DNA from: Mayamaea pseudoterrestris
Taxonomy: Eukaryota
DNA length: 64,000 nucleotides
Assembly: GCA_027923505.1 (NCBI GenBank)
Contig: BROI01000025.1
Span: 124,001-188,000, forward strand
Direction: 5' to 3'
Within the stretch, counting starts at the first letter, position 1. Each line of letters starts with the position of its first letter. Both the position numbers and the translations under genes were made by a program. This document shows positions 30,718 through 44,632 of this stretch, in pieces. Below the pieces are notes generated by a model that saw nothing but the letters and a program-made list of their open reading frames with translations, ran no database searches and was not told the origin of the DNA.

Positions 30718-33700
30718 CTATCGACGGGGCTTGGACGGAGCAAGTCTCTTGTTTCCACAAACATCACACTTGCGCTTGTTGCCAACGTTCTGAAAGGTGC
30801 ACGCCAAGCAGTCCCATCCATTAATGTTTGCAAATGGTGCCATGGCGATTGTGGCTTGGTTGGTGTTCTCCTTGTCAACGACTCTAGGATCGTCAACCTT
30901 CACCTTCTTTCTTAATGGCCCAACTTCTAACAACTCATCGAGGTTAATGTCAGAGTTTCCATTTGATTCTTGCGACAATAGGGCGCCTTCATTGCCCGAC
31001 TCGTCGTTCGTACTGCTGGAAGAGGCAGCGCCAGAGATCACGATTTCACCCACAGGCAATGGTCCGCTTAAATTGTCCTTACTCTCAATTGCCGCAACAC
31101 ACAACTCAGACGATGTGGACGTCTCGCCAAGTACATCGTCTTCGTCGATATCTGAGACTGCATCAGTCAAGCTTGCAATTTTATTTGCAGGGCCTGGTGA
31201 AAAAGTCAAGGACTCGTCTTTGAGCCCGCCGTTAACGACATTTTCATTTAAAGTGATAGGTTTTACAATGTCTTCATTGGCGTCATCAACATCAATCTCA
31301 TTAATTTTACCACATGGATTTCCCAGATTCTCGCCACACGACTCAGCGCCAGCGTCTATCTTGGGAGCATCTTCGTCGCAATCTTCTGTTAGAGCACATT
31401 CTTGAATGGAGTCAAGAGCTTCCAGTGCCAATTGTTCCTCCTCCTCCTGCTGGCGCTCTTGAATGAGGCTCTAAAAACGTCTGGATGTGAGGCACTTCTC
31501 GTCATTACAACAGCTCCCATCAAGCCGACTTACCCAAGTAACTTCTAGACCAAAGACAAACGAAACTGCATCGCGCCCACGCAATGCCGCGCGAAAAATT
31601 GGATCATCAACTGTGTCGACGCTGTGATGATGGCTCCATTGTCGCATGTCCTCCTCGTCGGGCATGCCGATCTGCTCCTGGTAATCATCGCCTCGCTCAT
31701 TGTGCATGTTCGCACAGGCGTCAAGTGGATCGTCCGTCACTTCATTTTGGGCAACATCGTCGTCATCACCAGATTTCATCTTCATGAGTCGAGGCACCAA
31801 GTCCGTCCACTTCTCGTACCAAAATGTCTGCAGGCACCGTGACGCATCTGCAATATCATCTCCCGGCGACCAGACCTTCATTACATTGCTAAAGATCCTG
31901 TTGACGTCCTTGGAAAAACCAGAGACACTCTTGTAGGACCCAGTATTGTCAATCGGCAAGTCGAGTCTTGTGCGAATGGTGCCCAAATCCATTGGTTGTT
32001 TCACCAGTTTCTCGTAGTCAATTTTAGTTGTACCATGGTCATCGGCGACCAATGGCTGAAGGAAGTGTTTGGCATCCTCTTGCATCGCAAGTTCCTCCAG
32101 AAGCTCTCTGCAAGCCGCCAGTTTCTTGGGAAGGACTTTCTGCGCCTCCACTTCTTCATCGTCATTGATGATTTTGCATCTCTCACAGCGCAGCTTGTCA
32201 TGTGTGTCAGAGGGCGTACCGGCTCTCAGTTTAAAGAGGTTCCGAAGATCCTTAGTGCTCAGCGCATTAACTTGATCTTTGTCGTCAACAACTGACTGCA
32301 GTCCCTCCTTCGATAGTTGTCGCTGGAATATCTTTTCCTCCACTGTTCCTGTTGCAAGAAAGCGGTACGTGAAGCATCGTTTCTTCTGGCCATCGCGCCA
32401 ACAACGCGCAGCTGTAGGAAAGGAGTGGAGTGAGAAGTACATCTATTTTGTAGCAACACCGCGACTTTGGCAATCCACGTACCTGCTTGTTTGTCAACGG
32501 CGGGATTCCTGAAATATTCATCTGCATGTAAGCTACGATTGTCTGTTGCAGCCATACTTGTGCATTCTTACTTACCAGTCGGGGTCAAAGAGAACCAATC
32601 GATTTGCCCCTATGAGATTGAGACCGCTGCACGAGAGACAAATTATCACGTGAGAGATGCAAGACTTAAACAGGGCCTTAACGATGTGACCAAAGCTCAC
32701 CATCCTCCGGCTTTGCTGGAAAGAAGGAACGCGACAAGCGAACTTGACGGATCATTGAACTCGTCAACCATTTGCTGTCGCTTCTTCATCGTAACGCTCC
32801 CATCCAGACGACAGCTGCCCCAGTGATTCTCTCGGCACATGCGCCCAATCAGATCCAGCGTCTGCGTGTAATTGGAAACAATGACAATCTTATCGCCACC
32901 ATTGCCTGGCTTGCGCATCTCCTTCATGAGCAGATACAAGGTCAACATCTTACCACTCCATTCTGGATGGATCAGAGCGAAGTCACCGCGCCCGCCACCA
33001 CCACCAACGTACGGCAAGTATTTCGCGAGTTCACCCGCACCGGGAGCAGCAGCTGTCTCCTTCTCATCGAAATTGTACTGCGCATTGCCGGCCACTGCAC
33101 GTTTGTTGGCTCCTGCTGATGGCTTATTGTCGTCGCTCACAATGAGGCTAGGGTGATTACACAGTTTCATTAGCATTTGAATCGAGCCAAGACAGTTGAC
33201 CTGCTTGCCTTCGAGCACATGCTGCGTATCCTTGCTATTGATGAGATGGGTGTACATTTCCTTTTGAATGTCCGTGAGGTTGCAGCAAACGACTTGTACC
33301 AACTTGGGTGGCAGGTGTTTTGCGTTGAGCGTATTGACGCGGCGTAGAATGAAATCGTTGACAGTTGCACTCATCTCCTGTTGAATTTGCACCATCTTTT
33401 TCTTTTGCGAATCAGTTGCGTCAGGCTCGCGGCCGCGAAGAATGGGGAACAACATTTTTCGTCGAAAGTCCTCAGGAGTTCCAAGAATTCCTGGATTGGT
33501 AAAGTCCACCATGGCGTAAAACTCCTGGAGATCGTTCTGCATTGGTGTGCCCGTAAGGAGAATTCTCCGCTTACAAGGAATGGAATTGAGTGCTTTGGAA
33601 GTCTGGTTGTCGCTGTTCTTCAGTCGATGCTGTAGGAAATGGTTTGGACACTTGAGTTAAACATCGCCAGTAGGGTAGCCGCTTAAAGCAATTACGCAAC

Positions 33701-34925
33701 ACTTACTGCTTCATCGCAGACCATTAAATCGCAGCAGTCAGCATACTTGCTAAGTCGCTTGCCGTGCGCTCGAATGCATTCGTAGCTGGCAATCAAAACA
33801 TTAAACATTTTGGTGCGCACAAAGGTATCCAAATTCTTTTCAACCGTCTTGCGATCCGCTTCGGCAATAGGAAGCGCCTTGACGACGCCTGGTCCAAGCC
33901 ACTTGACGAATTCATTGGCCCAGTTCTTGACCAATGAACATGGACAAATGACAATGACTCGCTTGGCCGTCGAAGCGCCGTCAGCAGTAATGCCAGTCTT
34001 GAGCAAGGTGTAAATCAATGCGACGGATTGCAAAGTCTTTCCTAGACCCATATCGTCTTTGAGGTGATAAAAAAAGGTCAGATGAGTAAGCAATGAATTT
34101 GCCTTGTGGAATACACGACGCAACTTTGCTCTCATTGCGTTATACTCACCAGCAAGAATGCATCCGCTTCCTCGATAATCTCGCAGCGACATGACGCATT
34201 CATACATGAACTGCACACCTTCCCGTTGATGCGGTCGCAGCCATTTGCACAAGACGTCTGGAACCATGACATCTTGCTTAGCGTAGGCTGCAGTCGGGGC
34301 TGGTTGGAGGACCGTCACTTCCTCCTCGACGCCGTACTCGTCGGCTCGAATTACCTTGGCCCTGTAAATGAGATGAGAAGCTGAAGGTTCAGATGCATGC
34401 AAGATAAAATCGACTAATCAATCCATGCTTATTAACGTACATTCGCGACGGAAGCCCCTTTGCTTCGCCTCCCTGATGTGGACTTTTCCATACGCACAAG
34501 GGTTCAAAGGGAGCATCCGGTTCCTTTCCATCTTCCTCATCATCCGATCCACTCTCCGACTCGGTTCCATCCTTGTTCTTGATTCCACGAGACGGTAACT
34601 TGTAGTTTAGACCCTTGCCAGCTCGTGCAAGAAGCTTGGCCATGCCGTCGAACCGACGCTTTTGTCCAAGCGACGAATGCTTCAAGGCCAAGTCGGCATC
34701 CTTGCCGTACGCGCGTCGCTTGAGCATGGGTCGCTGGAATTTCTTGCTTTGAACAACATGGAGACCTGATAGTAGAGGAGCTCGCTGCACCAGAATCTTG
34801 ACGCCGGGTTGAAAGAGCTTGGAGTTGGTGTGCATGATGGATGAAGGCCGTCCAATGCTGCTGCTGGCGCAAGTCATGGATGCCGAATTATCGCAAGCCG
34901 ACGATCCGCGTCGGACGAGCTTCAT
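30718..34925 (-). CDS. RAD54: RAD54-family SNF2 translocase with bromodomain and RanBP2-type zinc finger; introns 34362-34440, 34057-34149, 33630-33706, 32627-32700, 32509-32575, 32412-32482, 31471-31533
   Basis: [71 protein letters not shown] and DTHDKLRC reconstructed by splicing. Confidence 0.9.
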
Positions 34926-35444
34926 TGCTAATTAAAAAGGATTAATCGTTAGTGGATAAAGTATTGAATGGGTACGGTGCGAATAGTTAGATGTCGTCAT
35001 TGCCATGGACGACGGCAGCAAATCGGCCATGGTCGCGACGTTTCCCAGCGTGCGACGAATACTCACATGCGATCGCTTTCACGTAGTCATCACGTCACTC
35101 TGGTACAAGATGCGCGTCACGTGGTTTGGCTCGCGCCATTTTTCACTCGTGATGCGACATTTTGCTATCCTTCCGATTTGTGTTCTTGCGTCTTTCCCGC
35201 AGGCTTCGTCTAAACGATACAACATCGTCACTGTCCTAACACATTTCCGTCATGATGTGAATGATAATGGTTTCGTTACTAACAGGCATGACGAACTTGC
35301 GTTGTCTAAAGTAGCTCGAGAAAGCGAGAAACAGATCTACCTACCAGCCAAGCATGTCAAGTAGACTAATGTTTGAGTAACCCATGTATGGTGTTTATGT
35401 TCAATAAGATTATGTTCAAGTCTAAATAGTAAAGATGCACGCTT

Positions 35445-36323: not shown

Positions 36324-37131
36324 GGTTGTTTAAAGAGTTTGTAATTGAAGTATTATGCCAGCAAAGTTGTAAGCATTGTGATGAGTTTTATGCAAGGAGA
36401 CTCTTAGTCTTCAACTCCGTATGGCGAGAAAGGAACCCTTCGACCCATCTGTCATAAAAGAGGCTTATGCAAAGTATGACGCTGTCAACATCACCTGGAT
36501 TGCCAAATTTCTGAGCAAGGAGCTATCAATTTTTGTGGGCATAACTAATGTGAACGCGCACGTCGACACCTCAGTCGGAAAACAATGGGAAAGTGCGTAC
36601 TTCCCATGACTGTCGCAACGGTGTGGCTTTTCAAATTCTCCAATTTGTCACAAATTCGAAATCTGAGGTCACGGTTCCGCTTTGACACTTCCACAAACGT
36701 TTGCGTGTCATCACTTGTTTTCGGCAGAAATGGTCATCCAAAAAAGAATGACGTTCTTCCGCGATGTTTTTCGCGCGACGTGTCCGTCAGTGTTCGGAGA
36801 ATGGCTTTCCGTCGAAACAGCCATGTGTCTCTGTGATACTTTTATCCGAAAAATGTAACAGTGCGACATGCCGACATGATGCTCGCTCGTTGGTCGCCAA
36901 CAGGAGTTGTTGGCCAAAACTGACCTCAGCATGTCGGTATAGAAGGTGTACAGATACGCAATGGTGGCACGATCTCAAGCATGATATTGCGTGACTTATT
37001 TGTACAAAGTGGTTGTAAATGACTTGTACGGTTTATAGTGCTGTCCTTTACATGCGATCGGTGCGTTTGGGTACGGTATGCTTTACTCGACGATGCTGTC
37101 AAGTTGTTATACCACTACCAATTTTCCACCT

Positions 37132-40100
37132 TTACAACCAATCCGCATCAAGCTTGGATGGATCAACCTCAAATAGGTCCATCACGGCAGTCAAGCGGGC
37201 ACGACGCTTCTCGGCGGCAGTGAGCTTCTCGATCGACCCCTTGCCGAGCGCCTCCTTGCTAACCTGCGTGTACTTGACGAGACGCTCTTCAATCGAATCT
37301 GCCATGAGAAATCTTGTCACACGGACAGGTCGTGTTTGCCCAATACGGTGTACACGATCGCGGGCTTGATTCTCGACTGCCTATGAGTAGGAATGATTAG
37401 CAAGAGAGTGGGGAGGTGAGCAGTGACTTTGTTGTCGACAAATGACGCCAAATATGAAAGACCTACTCCGTTCCACCAGCTGCGAGTTGCATCGGAGGGA
37501 CCGGTTAGAGACATCCTTGGCACGAATTGTACATACTGTAATTACTATACTTACGGGTCAACCAAGAAGACAACATTGCCCCGGGTGAGGTTAATTCCAG
37601 TCCCGCAAGCCACTAAACCAAGGAAGCAAGGATGAGTACAAAGAACGAAAGCGAGTACAATAAACTCCTCCACTGTTGCTCACTCAGCGAGCAGAGAATA
37701 AAGCGTGGCTCCCCTGTCTCAAAATCATTCATAGCATTAAAGCGCTGCTGGGTATTCATCGAGCCATCGATTCGAGTGTAGGTGTAACCAAGGTCACGAA
37801 AATCTGCGGCAATCAAGTTGAGCATTGACGTCCACTGAGAGAAAATGACACACTTTTCGTCGTCTTGCATCTCGTCAATAACGTCCAGCATAGCTTGCAT
37901 CTTGGGGCTACGGCCATGCGTTTCGAAGGCCTCTGTTGCGTTTAGTTTTGGTGGAAAACCCTTCGAAGCAACCTTGGCGGAATGTGTCTTGACTAGATCA
38001 TCAGTAGTGTAAGGTTCACGACAGAGGGGACAAACCTGAACCTCGATGTCTTGCAAGCACGTTTCGCAGAAGACGTGTTTACATTTTCGTAGGATCGTGG
38101 CGTTTTCGTGTTCAAGTTCATTGAAGCACACCGCGCATTCCACGAGCTCATCATCTGCGAAGACTCCGCGAAGATGGGCAAGCAACGAAAACCCCTCTTC
38201 TTGGGTTAGAGTCACAAGCGACTCGTTCAGCTCTACCGCTCGCTGACGATAGTCGCCCGGAATCAAGCAAAAATGGTTGCAAGCTTGTCGAATGCGCAAG
38301 ATTAGCCCTGACAAGAACGCCGAGATTTAGTAAGAGTCGTGCTACAACAAGCGATAGAATCACTGCAGCACTCACCTAAAAGCTCCATGAATCGTTTTCC
38401 TGATTTGTTTTCTTTGCGCTGTTCCTTGGACATCTCCAGATAGTCAACGAAATATTCGCGCGCAGTTTTGTACATGGCATCATAAGTCGACTTGTGGACG
38501 CTGTCAGCAGGAAACTCAATAAGGCGCAATTCAACTGGACAAGAGTGAAATTAAATCGAAAGAAGCGCGTAAGCATCGCTACAAAATGACGGACAAAAGT
38601 CGCTCGTTTACATACCTGTTTTGGGAGCGAGTTGGATGTGTTGCATGACGGCGGCCTTTGTGCGGCGCAAACAAATGAACGCCAGCACAGTACGAAGACG
38701 GAAAAGACCAATCTCGCGGCGTTCTCTGATAGGTTCCGAGACATATGCATCAAAAATATCCTTGTTGCACAGCGGCTGGATTTCCAAAAATGCCAACAAA
38801 GAAAAAATATCGTTTGGCTTGTTCAACATTATCGTTCCTAAAGCGAGGCAATGATTATGACGAGCAGGATACGGCGCGCGAGACATTAAGACACATAAGA
38901 TTGGCGCTTACCTGTCAAACAGAGTTTTCGTTCGGCGCTTAAAAGCATCATTGCTTCGAAAGCTTTTGACTCGTTGTTTTTGATGATGTGCTAGAGAGCG
39001 CGAAACAAAGGTCGAGCGTGAGATGCATGCCTAAATGTGGTTCGAATCTCTCTTTCTATGACTTACCGCTTCGTCAAGGACCAAGCGATGAAATTGAAGG
39101 TCGAAAATCCATATGTTGGTCTTGCGTCTCTTGGGTTTACTTTCACGCTGCAGTTGTTTCCGATAGTAAACGCTGTCGTCTGATTCGTCGTCCTCATCAC
39201 TGAGAGGCTGATTCATCTTCGCCTTTGGTTTCGTCGCTTTGCCCTTTATCTCCATCATCAGCTTGAGGTCGCTGCTCAGGGTTTGATAGGTACTTAAAAC
39301 AATATCGACCATGCCCTTCTTTATTAGCGACAACACTTTATGTCGATTGTTCCCATGATACACGGCAACTGAAAGGTATTTGCTGTCGTCACGATTGATA
39401 TGCTGCTTTATTTGAGACATCCAATTCGCAATGACCGACTTTGGCGCAACGATCAAGGTCGCACGTGGTGCATCGTCCGCGTCGAGCCCGTGCTCTTTGG
39501 GCAGCGGGTACGACTTAAAGTTTCCGGGAGGATTTGCGACTATAAGCGCTAAAGTTTGAAGAGTTTTGCCAAGTCCCATATCTGTGATTGGAAATGTAAA
39601 GATGACCATGAGAGCAAACTAGAGGAGCAGCGTCCAACACATGCCACTTTCATATTGAGACTCACCATCCGCCAAGATTGCGCTTCGAGTTGGTTTGGGC
39701 GTGGTATAGAGCTTGGCTTTGGTGATCTGACACTTCCAAATTTTTCGCCCTTGGAATTCAATTTCTTCAATGTATGAAGGGATTGAGCCGCGTTCTTGAT
39801 TGATGAGCCAAGCGATGCCTTGCTTTTGGAAATCATAGAATGTCAAATGTGAAAGCAGCGATGGCGTTTCATATGGCGGAAGATCATTGAAACGACTTTC
39901 ACTCTGTTTTTCGAAAAGCCTATCAATCTCTTCGCGCTGCGCTTGCCAGTCAATCGCCTGCGTATGCACGCTAGCTTGGACCGCTCGTGACGATACAGCG
40001 TCAGGGGCATTGATACCGAGAGTAGTACTAATAGACCCTACAGGTGCCGTGTCATCCGTTGTAGCACGAAAGTTGCCTTGTAGATGCGCTGAAAGTACAT

Positions 40101-42649
40101 TGCGAAAATGGGTAATCTGTGCCGGCGAGCAAGCGTATTCGACCTTTATTGTCGTGCCCGTCGAGTAGTTATTTCGGCCCTTTGCAACTCCTTTAGCTTC
40201 GATGGAGGCAATGCATGTAATTGAGTCGTAGTGATCCATGATTCTTGCGAGCATGCTTCCTTGTGTTTTCCAAACAAAGCCAATTGTCGTGCCGGTCAAA
40301 GTGTCGACGCGAATGGCATGCTTGCCGTAGTGATACTTGCGCTCCCGCACAAGATTCACTATGTCACCAACACTGACAAAGTCAGAACTCTTTTTATCGG
40401 TGTAGTTGACAAGAACGAGCGTGCTGTACCCTAAAATTTGGGTATTAGTGTCCGAAATTTCTTCGTCGTTGTCATCGACGGTGAGGACAAGTGGCAATGA
40501 CGACAATGCTGCTGCCCCGAGGGATGCGCTGGTCGCTGCATTCATGTCAACTGCCTTAATGCTGGCTGCTTTCGAACTCACTTCTACTGCTTGAAACATG
40601 CCACCGAGGCAAGCAGTCAAAATGTCTATGTAACGGCTCACGTGATTCGCCGTCGTAGCAAATCGCACCATCATGGGAACTACGTTAAATTGCCGCTCAC
40701 CGGAAAGTGTCGCCACACAATGAATCAGCTCGTAGTTGTCCATGATCTTTGCCAGCTTTTTGGCGTGTTCAAGCTCAATGTGCCCAATCGTCGCGCCACT
40801 TGCCGTCTGAACACGAATAGCATTCGTATCGTATTCGTTCTCTTTTTCGCGGACAAGCGCAAGCTGATCGCTAACGTTTACTTGTGCATATCCAGAGTGA
40901 AATAGTGTACCGACCAAAGACAGAGTGCATGAGCCAATCGTTTGAAGCTCGTCATCCACCGACTTATCCGGTGCCGGGGGCTTTTCGGACGAGCGTTGTG
41001 CAACAGGTAGCTGCACCTGCGGTACCGGAGGCTTGGGCGCAGCTTTTTTGGCGTAAATTTCCGTACCTGGCGCTGGCTGGAAGTTGCAGCCAAGCATTTG
41101 AGTAAGCGAACCATAAGATTCTTCCGTGGTGGGCTGTATGTTCGTGTTGCTGCAGTCATACTTGTAGGATACTAAGATGGGAATGTCGCTCGCATGTGGA
41201 CCGATGGTAATCGCTTCGACCAAAATGTGCGCATTACTGCTAAGAAACTCGGAGAACTGGGTGTCCGTCTCGCGAATGAGGCCAAGTTTGATGCCTTGGT
41301 TATCCAATACCCCTATTGCATTTGGAATGTGCACCTGGCAGAGAAAAGATGTATTGACTGTGAGTGCATGTTATTCAACTAGCAAGGTCGAGCGCGCACT
41401 GTTCACGGCAATGGACGTACATTATGAGTGTCTTGCACAAGAGTGACCGTGTCTCCTTCACTCGTGTTACCCGCGCTGTACATGACTCCCATAATGGTGA
41501 AGTCGCTCCAGCCCAAGATAATCATGGACGAGGGTCGCGTCGCAGTACCCGATACAACCTTTGGCAACGACGGATACGAATTCGTCGGCTCCATTCGACG
41601 AGCAAGGCTGATTGATGTAGATGATATCTTCTTGTCGCTTCCATTGTACGGCGCATTTATGGAGCGAGGCTTGGCTTCGTCTGGTTCACAATCTGAATCG
41701 CAGGACGAAAGTGCTGGTGACTCGCTCGAGCGCTTGCGTGCCGACGGCTTGATCGAAGGCGTATCCTCCCACCAAGCGTCTTCATCTTGAACCAATGGAC
41801 TAGTCATCTCTTTCGGCTTGGCTACTGCCATTGCCATGAGCTGTGCTCGCTGCTGATGGTTCATAAAGGCGCTCGTGGTGCGTTGGTTCATGATGCGGCG
41901 CGCCGACGGCTTTGTTAAAGGCGTATCCTCCCACCAGGCGTCCTCCTCCTGATCTAATGTGCTAGTCGTCTTTTTCGGCTTGGAAACTGCAATTTCCATG
42001 AGCTGTGCTCGTTGATGCTGGCTGGTAAAGGCACTCGTGGTGCGTTGGTTCACGGTGCGGGATGATGGCGGCGAATCCACATTTGTAGGCTCAAAGATTC
42101 GTCCCAAGCGATTCTGCAACTGCAATTGAGCAGCTCGAACTTGATTCGCATCTACTGTACCAGTACTCTTGAGCAAATAGGTGATCTGAATGGTGCAATG
42201 CGTGTTGCTAAGCGACGTTTTAAAGAGGACGACTGCCGTCGTTTGAATCTCGTCTTGCTGGAGAACAAACGCAAGATTTGCTGCATGAACTGAATCATAC
42301 TTTCCAAGCAGAAAGTCATCTTCGTCTCCAATATATACGCTCGACTGGAGAATAATAATAACATATTGGATTGAGTCGATCCGGTTGCTGTATCTTTACA
42401 CTTGTCGCTTGCATTTTCACTTACATCATTTCCGGCGCCGCGAATGAGATAAACAACATCTCCTTCATTCGGCAACTCAGCATCGCTCCCCAGAGTCATT
42501 ACCATGAGTCCTGTGCCAAGTAGACGACTCGGAAGATCCGGAGTAATGGTGCGGGAGTTGTTGGTGCGAAAGTTTGTCGTCGAGTCAAACATTGCCATGG
42601 GAGCGTCATTCGGCGGCGCCGTGACGCGCTCTTTCTCCCCTCTCGGCAT
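37132..42649 (-). CDS. RAD5/HLTF/SMARCA3-like SNF2 helicase with RING finger and multiple N-terminal HIRAN-like domains (multi-exon)
   Basis: [47 protein letters not shown]3HC4 [19 protein letters not shown] and [10 protein letters not shown]; 5' introns 42345-42424 and 41335-41420 keep frame. Confidence 0.85.
41732..42055 (-). repeat. Intragenic tandem duplication, 162 bp / 54 aa x2
   Basis: [37 protein letters not shown] occurs twice. Confidence 0.9.
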
Positions 42650-43138
42650 GGAATCAACTTGTATTTCTGAAGGTATTTCTAACTGGTGGCTGCTGTGACG
42701 ATGAGGATGAGACGGTAAAGTAGGTCCGCTGCATGGATCGCTCCGACTCGTCGCGTGGTTGTTGCTTCCGTGCTGGAAGCGAAACGTGTTTTGGAGTTAA
42801 GGGAATGTCGCGCCGGTCGAGCCGAAAGCAAGCGTGCAGGCCTCACAAATTCTTCCTGCCAATGCTGAATTCAAGAATAAACGATTGCGGGACCTGTTTT
42901 AAAAGGGGTTTGCCATTTTTTAGATGCCATTGCTACATCTATTTCTTTTATGAGGTTTGTAAGACGCATAGCCCAAATCAACTTTCATTCCGCTAGCGCC
43001 AAACGGTGCATTCACAATAGAACCGCTACGACACTGCATGGACGTGCCACCAAGTGTGCCATCCATTGTTTTTTGGTTGCATCCTCCCCCTCTCCAACTG
43101 AGCGCCACCATGTTAGGCGCAAGACTGTCAGGGTTATA

Positions 43139-44632
43139 ATGCCAATAGATCTCCGACCTTTTGCCCAAGATGAAAGTCTTTGGAATGCCTTGGAATTGTC
43201 ACTTGAACTGCGCGGCGCGACAGCTAATGACGATGATGACGAGCCATCACTCCTGGTCGCTCAACTTCGACAAGCTCACGGCGACACACGACGAGCCAAG
43301 CAGCAGCTTGAATTGTATCGAAGCCAATATAAAAGGAAGCAAGTGACGGATAGACACAAATTGCAGAACCTTGAGTTGTCGTTTCGTCAAGCGGAAGACA
43401 CAAGTAACCATATCTTGTCGCGCGTTCCAAACTACGTCGACTCGGAGATTCCCACTTTCATCGACAAGGATGATGAAAGTGAGTGGCAAACCGCTGACAA
43501 TCAACAAACAAGGACGCACAATGACGAAACAGTAAACCAAATTATGTTCTGCATTGGAGGCTACGAACAACTGGGAACGCATATTATTTTGACTGGACGA
43601 GGCAGAGGTTTGTTGCAGGCGATGGAGCAGTACATGATTGAATCCTGTCAAGAAATGCCGGCCGTCGTCAAGTCCGAAGTACTGGATATGCCTCTGATGC
43701 TTCCCATTGACGCTGCAAGTTACCAGAAGCGGTGTGGCGTCGTTTCGCCGTTCCATCAATGCCTTTCCGATGGCTCAATCATGGCGCCTTCGTGGATGTC
43801 ACTGGTTGAGCACCATTTACCATTGAACGATACCTATTTTGATCGATCCCTTCCACAAAGCTTCTTGCTTTCCTGCACGGACTGCATGCACCGCACTCCA
43901 CCGACACTCCAGACACAGCGTCAATCCAGTTGGTATCGCGACCTGCCACTTCACCAAGACTTGCAAGTCCTTCTTGTGACTGGTCCCAGTTTATCAATCG
44001 ACTCGAGACGCTTGCAAATATCATGGATGGAGCATTTGCGAGACGTCTACCAACAACTAGCACCCACATCTCGCTTGAGAATCCGATCCATTCAGCCTGC
44101 TGACTTGTCGTCAGCGGAAGCCAGTCGGCTCGTGTTGGAAAGTTACATGCCGACTACCGGTAGTGCTATTAGCAGTAGCAGCAAAGTCGATAATCAACTT
44201 ACTATTGAACTCGCGTCAACGAGCAACCTGTTGGATTACTGCAGTGATGGTTTGAAGCATGGCAACTCAATGGACAAGGGCAACGTACATTTGCTTCACG
44301 GAAGTGTTTGCAACGTCGGTTTCGCGGTGGAATGGATGCTGCAGCATTGCAAGACGGTTGACCATGGATGCCAAGGCATTCTCCTGCCAAACTGCATCCA
44401 ACATGGAGCGGAAATAAACTTTTGTCGGCGCTTTATCAAGAAGAAGGGAGGCAAGCAGTTTGTGCAAGCCATTCCATTGCCTGCGCAGCAAGCAGTTGTT
44501 GCACCTACATCTGGCCACGACGCGAACGCAACGTTTGGGAGCGGCAGCGACGACGTTTGCGGGCCGACGATAGAAAGGATACGTAAGGAAGCAGCAAGCT
44601 GTCCATTCGACTTTTTGCCATTTTACAAATAA
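43139..44632 (+). CDS. Seryl-tRNA synthetase-like protein, apparently degenerate
   Basis: N-terminal MPIDL and coiled coil, RVPNYVDSEIP, ELASTSNLLDY, VHLLHGSVC and GILLP parallel SerRS landmarks. Confidence 0.65.
   Translation: MPIDLRPFAQDESLWNALELSLELRGATANDDDDEPSLLVAQLRQAHGDTRRAKQQLELYRSQYKRKQVTDRHKLQNLELSFRQAEDTSNHILSRVPNYVDSEIPTFIDKDDESEWQTADNQQTRTHNDETVNQIMFCIGGYEQLGTHIILTGRGRGLLQAMEQYMIESCQEMPAVVKSEVLDMPLMLPIDAASYQKRCGVVSPFHQCLSDGSIMAPSWMSLVEHHLPLNDTYFDRSLPQSFLLSCTDCMHRTPPTLQTQRQSSWYRDLPLHQDLQVLLVTGPSLSIDSRRLQISWMEHLRDVYQQLAPTSRLRIRSIQPADLSSAEASRLVLESYMPTTGSAISSSSKVDNQLTIELASTSNLLDYCSDGLKHGNSMDKGNVHLLHGSVCNVGFAVEWMLQHCKTVDHGCQGILLPNCIQHGAEINFCRRFIKKKGGKQFVQAIPLPAQQAVVAPTSGHDANATFGSGSDDVCGPTIERIRKEAASCPFDFLPFYK

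Follow-up and report, generated by a model that had tools for sequence, protein, structure and literature searches.

Human HLTF (SMARCA3/HIP116) and its eukaryotic orthologues share one domain order, in which a HIRAN domain is followed by SNF2 lobe 1, a RING finger and lobe 2, and it is the HIRAN domain that gives HLTF its specificity for nascent 3′ ends. Within this domain D94 is reported to bind the 3′-OH, with Y72 and Y93 pinching the bases (PMC5773155). An N90/N91 double mutant is described as fully impaired, whereas single changes at 71, 91 or 110 are not fully impairing (PMC4666394). HLTF is further reported to dimerise on forks (PMC13154178), and its action as a dimer makes any version with several HIRAN domains built into one chain, together with tests of end valency, topical. 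Yeast Rad5 has a single HIRAN of another sub-family, 12% identical to that of HLTF, which is reported to bind ssDNA without any need for a 3′-OH, to bind PCNA and to pack against the motor (PMC7804152). The premise on which a preliminary description of the present locus relied, namely that such proteins carry one 3′-OH-binding HIRAN, therefore holds for HLTF and not for yeast Rad5, in which the same fold does other jobs.

A further arrangement is that of SMARCAL1, whose two HARP domains are of unequal importance for fork regression and have a fold different from that of HIRAN; we know of no RING in this protein. It too is an SNF2 fork remodeller, and its HARP1 and HARP2 are tandem substrate-recognition domains (PMC9243424), in which respect it resembles the protein described here. 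Repeated HIRANs within one chain are known, as database entries, from proteins which, unlike the present one, lack SNF2: P0125 (Thermosipho) has four and P0247 has two alongside UvrD domains. The four HIRANs of P0125 form two near-identical pairs, and P0239 and P0251 also belong to this SNF2-free set of proteins with two to four HIRANs. As the preliminary description had supposed, no account of multi-HIRAN SNF2 helicases was found in the searchable literature, where an earlier listing is nevertheless possible; multi-copy HIRAN wording led, among the matches listed, only to two veterinary papers, and the main text of a paper with Mayamaea pseudoterrestris in its title makes no mention of HIRAN, RAD5, HLTF or helicase.

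The window analysed here is the whole stretch of 64,000 nucleotides from contig BROI01000025.1 of Mayamaea pseudoterrestris, and all positions below refer to it. It contains a gene whose product is, as judged from its sequence, an HLTF-type SNF2-RING protein with the domain order of HLTF. Unlike HLTF, it has four HIRAN-fold domains, the first of them very diverged, as compared with one in each of 23 HIRAN-annotated outside matches; moreover, the domain next to the motor is without a pocket and the N-terminus extends over about 800 aa, including a duplicated linker. Repeated HIRANs are not rare in databases, being mostly found without SNF2. What appears to be without precedent is the combination of HIRANs in tandem with an HLTF motor, present across a clade and with pockets that diverge.

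Gene structure and the SNF2-RING motor

The gene lies on the minus strand at 37132..42649, running from an ATG at 42649 to a stop at 37132 through 11 exons (exons 1 to 6 at 42649-42425, 42344-41421, 41334-39666, 39581-39067, 38990-38912 and 38837-38616; exons 7 to 11 at 38534-38376, 38307-37684, 37612-37555, 37479-37467 and 37380-37132), and it encodes 1,578 aa with no internal stops. All ten introns of the corrected model are GT..AG and leave the reading frame open, and along the protein the order is four HIRANs, SNF2 lobe 1, RING and SNF2 lobe 2. Intron 1 (42345..42424, 80 nt, GTAAGT..CTCCAG) falls within the pocket loop of block 1, whereas intron 2 (41335..41420, 86 nt, GTACGT..TGCCAG) falls immediately past the N91-equivalent of block 2, at a site common to the first HIRAN of the paralogue P0002 and to that of the two-HIRAN gene P0122 (see below). 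Both are on the minus strand and in phase 0, and the earlier proposal that their removal gives a single N-terminus is borne out: 940 aa follow without interruption, both introns are used by the deposited protein P0001 (MPSEU_000971300, Mayamaea pseudoterrestris, 1,495 aa, 100% identical over the queried exon), and their joints are found in assembled contigs.

These contigs come from four runs, X1 to X4, of a single study, none recorded as RNA, and were compared with 37000-43000; X2 to X4 are taken as spliced from their joints, and X1 is without joints. Combined, X2 to X4 skip all ten introns, intron 1 being skipped in one run of the four (X2) and intron 2 in two (X3 and X4). Record 13 of X3, which is 4,145 nt long, covers 41971 to 37126 with nine introns removed and therefore joins block 2 to the helicase end. 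Exon 1 is linked to the helicase through the overlap of contigs (X2 record 12, X4 record 19 and X3 record 13) rather than by a single spanning contig. The 5′ exons are, as had been proposed, joined to the helicase, and the evidence supports a single spliced gene for an HLTF-type helicase with its HIRANs in tandem. That the 5′ exons might form a separate gene is ruled out, since exon 2 is a single open frame and intron 2 lies inside block 2, and it is countered also by contigs that skip intron 2 and run on through the helicase. Equally, an assembly artefact is ruled out by the divergence of the blocks (19-34% identical), by the confinement of the sole direct repeat of at least 20 nt to the linker, and by kindred arrays in other samples.

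That repeat is a duplication of 2 x 162 nt (54 aa, 83% identical) at 41736..42059, minus strand, between blocks 1 and 2. In each copy a basic patch comes after an acidic di-tryptophan motif, and these are possible protein-binding or nuclear-import motifs.

The deposited protein and the corrected model are identical across the first 1,472 aa and part company at the 3′ end, where X3 and X4, by their joints and by inserted letters, reveal a 13-nt micro-exon (37467-37479) and a last 106 aa that are both missing in P0001. Together with the intron at 37613-37683, the micro-exon restores helicase motifs V and VI, absent from the deposited protein. The motor so completed consists of an SNF2 lobe 1 region (aa about 885-1276, 38273..39831; Pfam PF00176, 196 bits), a C3HC4 RING finger inserted in the ATPase (aa 1322-1361, 38018..38137) and a lobe 2 carrying motifs IV-VI and including the micro-exon (37132..37903), all on the minus strand. 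Walker A, the DEAH box (across introns) and motif VI are intact; motifs III-VI are present, V and VI only in the splice-supported model, and motif III has Ile in place of the usual Pro that is found in the paralogue P0002.

Among solved structures, the motor-RING part is closest to Rad5 of K. lactis (6L8N/6L8O; E 5e-33). In the helicase tree the protein falls inside an 11-row clade together with P0006, a single-HIRAN protein of Attheya (support 100/99), and its motor groups with that of P0006 at 95/83, in a tree that is without a named Rad5, Rad16 or SHPRH reference and has unsettled deep branches.

The HIRAN blocks and their end pockets

The preliminary description had recognised four HIRAN-like blocks by a shared motif. 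As a consensus this motif stands, with block 1 lacking its NAI and G..IG elements and block 2 its A..LA..MD. Blocks 2 to 4 are secure as HIRAN domains because of their scores on outside profiles, built without any sequence from this genome, and because of their Pfam stretches. Block 2 (aa 350-470, 41074..41522, pI 4.3), block 3 (aa 514-632, 40588..40944, of HLTF type) and block 4 (aa 681-806, 40066..40443, adjoining the motor, pI 9.5), all on the minus strand, score 34.1, 90.2 and 58.6 bits with a profile of 155 outside HIRAN domains and 27.2, 63.6 and 36.1 bits with one of 22 such domains. Pfam PF08797 (HIRAN) finds three stretches in P0001, totalling 117.7 bits, rather than one block only; blocks 3 (62 bits) and 4 (35 bits) exceed the cut-off of 24.7, and block 2 scores 14.5 over its 3′ half. 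Despite a pairwise identity of only 19-34%, the core pattern of the blocks is kept, and this points to a fold under constraint.

The evidence for block 1 (aa 42-160, 42090..42526, minus strand, pI 4.7), a very diverged HIRAN-fold domain whose pocket is lost, is weaker. In hmmalign, match states cover only its second half. It is without a Pfam match and scores only 3.8 and 1.1 bits on the two outside profiles, such that one could suppose three HIRANs preceded by an unrelated small alpha/beta domain. The AlphaFold model from the single sequence (pLDDT 59) is in keeping with this supposition but is in itself uninformative: its best Z, 7.3, is to unrelated folds, no HIRAN structure is matched, and Foldseek gives no match at E 0.001 or better. 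When 37 HIRAN rows are supplied, the model reaches pLDDT 89 and TM 0.75-0.79, with a Z of 13.4 to the HLTF HIRAN 4XZG (rmsd 2.7 over 115 residues; next unrelated fold 5.9), although this model is led by its alignment and is without a decoy control. In other words, the HIRAN fold expected of block 1, a six-stranded barrel with two helices, is obtained only when a HIRAN alignment is given as input.

Against an unrelated origin stand the scores with respect to controls. On a leave-one-out profile of 11 clade domains block 1 scores 14.3 bits, with maxima of 6.8 for 500 shuffles and 5.6 for 870 real-ORF windows; on the outside profile without composition correction it scores 9.9, with maxima of 8.0 for 1,000 shuffles and 7.3 for the 870 decoys, a level reached by none of them. 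Moreover, its phase-0 intron sits in the same loop as that of block 2, within one codon, and the unguided and guided models have six strand ranges and the final helix in common. As leads only, a language-model search shows HIRAN as its only Pfam family (13% of a cluster, score 0.82), and the best scores in a language-model atlas, 0.86 and 0.87, lie under the 0.9 line. Taken together, these features make block 1 very probably HIRAN-derived and an unrelated domain at this position highly improbable.

The end pocket can be followed residue by residue in the numbering of human HLTF, taken from alignment to the HLTF HIRAN structures. At positions 71/72/91/93/94/110/113, block 3 has L, F, N, Y, D, H and L, block 4 has T, D, Y, Y, G, F and K, and block 2 has M, Y, N, H, I, L and R; in block 1 the pocket loop is shortened. 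Block 3 is therefore the only block with the HLTF end pocket (N91, Y93, D94 and H110, with an aromatic F at 72), and its best PDB matches are the HLTF HIRAN structures 2MZN, 5BNH and 4XZF (E 8e-9), the Rad5 structure 6L8N being absent among the six PDB sequence matches. In block 4, which is basic, N91 is replaced by Y, D94 by G and H110 by F, and Y93 and K113 are retained; in block 2, which is acidic, Y72 and N91 are retained, with D94 replaced by I and H110 by L. D94 is accordingly kept in one block of four, as compared with all nine canonical comparison domains, which also keep N91, and the pattern N-x-x-D-x-x-A is present in 148 of 155 outside HIRAN domains.

From these residues block 3 is plausibly the sole block able to read a 3′ end. 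Its own end-binding is nonetheless uncertain, because R71 and K113, which we take to bind phosphate in HLTF, are both replaced by L. For block 4, the HIRAN of Rad5, which is without a 3′-OH pocket, provides a precedent.

Relatives and the history of the array

A Pfam search of the genome gives at least seven HIRAN matches at no fewer than three loci, namely the window gene and one gene each on contigs C6 and C24. The C6 paralogue, P0002 (L008:3456-8400, G000:C6), has three HIRANs, SNF2 and RING, and two of its three pockets are near-intact. Its deposited model also seems to end before helicase motif VI. The C24 gene, P0122 (L009:5008-6420, minus strand, G000:C24), has two HIRANs with both pockets altered and is helicase-free; it looks like a truncated relative and could be a competitor or an adaptor. 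With 44 of 64 candidates scored, the two best matches in the genome to the single-HIRAN P0006 of Attheya are the window gene and P0002, and so, within those 44, no conventional one-HIRAN copy is seen. The window gene is, on sequence comparison, one of two HLTF co-orthologues in this genome.

Beyond the genome, 2,811 of 1.84 billion representatives were matched in a profile search, and among the best 150 of these 22 have at least two HIRAN stretches. Leaving the window protein aside, 17 of the remaining 21 are without an SNF2 match and four have one: P0121 (at least three HIRANs), P0123 and P0124 (at least two each) and P0134 (two, its SNF2 score falling short of the cut-off). The environmental proteins P0121, P0123 and P0124 were each called from a single ORF, which opens within the first HIRAN and stops at the intron site of the DEA motif. 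Scans of metagenome contigs for the upstream exons of such relatives confirmed none of 385 pattern matches and, in a further set, one of 598, a distant SNF2; the HIRAN counts of the three are therefore lower bounds. Their motors are 52-64% identical to one another and to those of P0001 and P0002, with which they form one clade (100/99 in a 31-row helicase tree), and we infer that they come from diatoms. P0121 resembles P0002 in having two near-intact B pockets among its three HIRANs, and P0123 has one full pocket together with D94 and H110 in a partial first domain. In neighbouring branches P0004 has two degenerate HIRANs, P0005 has one degenerate HIRAN, P0003 has Tudor domains and P0277 has a DnaJ domain, such that the N-terminal targeting module of this helicase lineage is, to judge by its domain content, unusually labile. 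In P0134 the two HIRANs lie ahead of the SNF2 start and group with each other (SH-aLRT 93), which suggests an independent duplication.

In the domain tree the HIRANs of the clade fall into two types: an A group of blocks 1 and 2 with the first domains of relatives (SH-aLRT 93, the branch of block 1 being long) and a B group with blocks 3 and 4 (SH-aLRT 97). This split follows from both the domain tree and the shared intron sites. The ancestor would on this basis already have had an array of both types, the A type with its intron standing ahead of the B type, and the order would have passed from A-B to A-B-B and, by further duplication of both types, to A-A-B-B in the window gene.

Possible roles of the array

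Starting from the observed gene structure, splicing, domains, residue states and family placement, the explanation that we favour, with a probability of about 0.55, is an HLTF-type fork translocase and ligase in which block 3 serves as end sensor, block 4 is docked on the motor and blocks 1 and 2 are protein-contact or spacer modules. By family precedent the protein would translocate on dsDNA, carry a RING ligase within its motor and work at stalled replication forks, the activities expected of the HLTF/Rad5 subfamily being fork reversal and PCNA polyubiquitination. Block 3 would hold one ssDNA 3′ end, probably more weakly than HLTF does because of its two lost basic residues. Block 4 would occupy the place on the motor that is taken in Rad5 by its one HIRAN and, being basic, would probably bind a partner or the backbone of DNA, with no preference for ends; the acidic blocks 1 and 2 would keep the fold without a DNA pocket and, set on linkers that are long and flexible, would most likely make protein contacts or act as spacers. 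Since the HIRAN of Rad5 functions otherwise, loss of the pocket need not equal loss of function. The spliced contigs, the ATPase motifs with the RING, the A/B split and the retention of D94 in one block of four argue for this explanation; against it are the failure of block 1 to fold as a HIRAN on its own, the absence of R71 and K113 from block 3 and the ratio of variants in the N-terminal part, given below. In short, the window protein probably senses one end only, its other three HIRAN-fold modules having been repurposed or being in decay.

The main rival, which we think improbable, is that the gene is a decaying duplicate: P0002 would do the HLTF job, and the additional HIRANs would be remnants on which selection is relaxed, the protein working through block 3 alone or mainly through its motor and ligase. 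In the domain tree the HIRAN branches of the window gene measure 2.27, 1.12, 0.72 and 1.03, as compared with 0.45, 0.55 and 0.62 for P0002, at similar motor branches in the helicase tree (0.33 and 0.30), which also fits decay and counts against the favoured explanation. In the same direction point the loss of the pocket in three blocks of four, the change from Pro to Ile in motif III, and the fate of the N-terminal module in sister lineages, where it is replaced by Tudor (P0003) or DnaJ (P0277) or consists of degenerate HIRANs (P0004 and P0005). So too does a near-neutral ratio among listed variants: from 40 listed of 74 sequence differences, a small and filtered sample, 29 coding ones were classified (11 intronic or 3′ non-coding ones being omitted), with 14 non-synonymous and 6 synonymous in the N-terminal part and 3 and 6, respectively, in the motor. 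The listed non-synonymous changes outside the motor are, however, mostly off the pocket positions, 7 of the 14 being in linkers; all ten introns are spliced and a frame of 1,578 codons stays open; and the blocks retain a fold-compatible core despite deep divergence. The preliminary description went the other way, with all or most of the four domains binding 3′ ends so that several ends are held by avidity. Four HIRAN-fold domains on flexible linkers would suit such a model, as would the residues retained in block 2 (Y72 and N91) and in block 4 (Y93 and K113), the two pockets kept in related proteins, and the report that single HLTF substitutions at 71, 91 or 110 are not fully impairing (PMC4666394). 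Blocks 1, 2 and 4 are nevertheless without both D94 and H110, blocks 1 and 2 are acidic, and the N-x-x-D-x-x-A pattern is kept by nearly all outside domains. Multivalent 3′-end sensing by the window protein is thus not supported, and we regard it as unlikely; the idea fits P0002 and P0121 better, because each has two near-intact pockets.

A wider reading, which we put forward only tentatively, is that a diatom lineage turned HLTF into an array enzyme, in which a pair of B-type HIRANs would hold two 3′ ends for one motor and one ubiquitin ligase. The two ends might, for example, flank a gap or break, or be those of a nascent leading strand and an Okazaki fragment. P0002 and P0121 would have kept this state, and in the window gene the labour would have been divided, with a single block sensing an end, another docked on the motor as a module for ssDNA or PCNA, and the remaining two binding proteins.

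Whichever reading holds, the relatives form a natural series on one conserved motor, from one intact HIRAN (Attheya), through two or three HIRANs of which two have intact pockets (P0002 and P0121) and four with one pocket (the window gene), to degenerate HIRANs (P0004 and P0005) and Tudor or DnaJ replacements (P0003 and P0277). Such a series would lend itself to asking directly how end valency, and position relative to the motor, affect fork reversal. For a variant of domain architecture in a non-model alga, only a demonstration of two-ended binding would raise the gain above moderate.

Two neighbours of the gene were noted in the window. Head-to-head with it on the plus strand is a frame of 583 codons (42881-44632), which gives no Pfam match at E 0.01 and by eye resembles a degenerate seryl-tRNA synthetase. 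Some 2 kb downstream, on the minus strand, is a second SNF2 helicase (30718-34931), presumably RAD54-like by its motifs, and the frames after it match a bromodomain at 52.8 bits and, at 24 bits, which falls short of the cut-off, a RanBP-type zinc finger.
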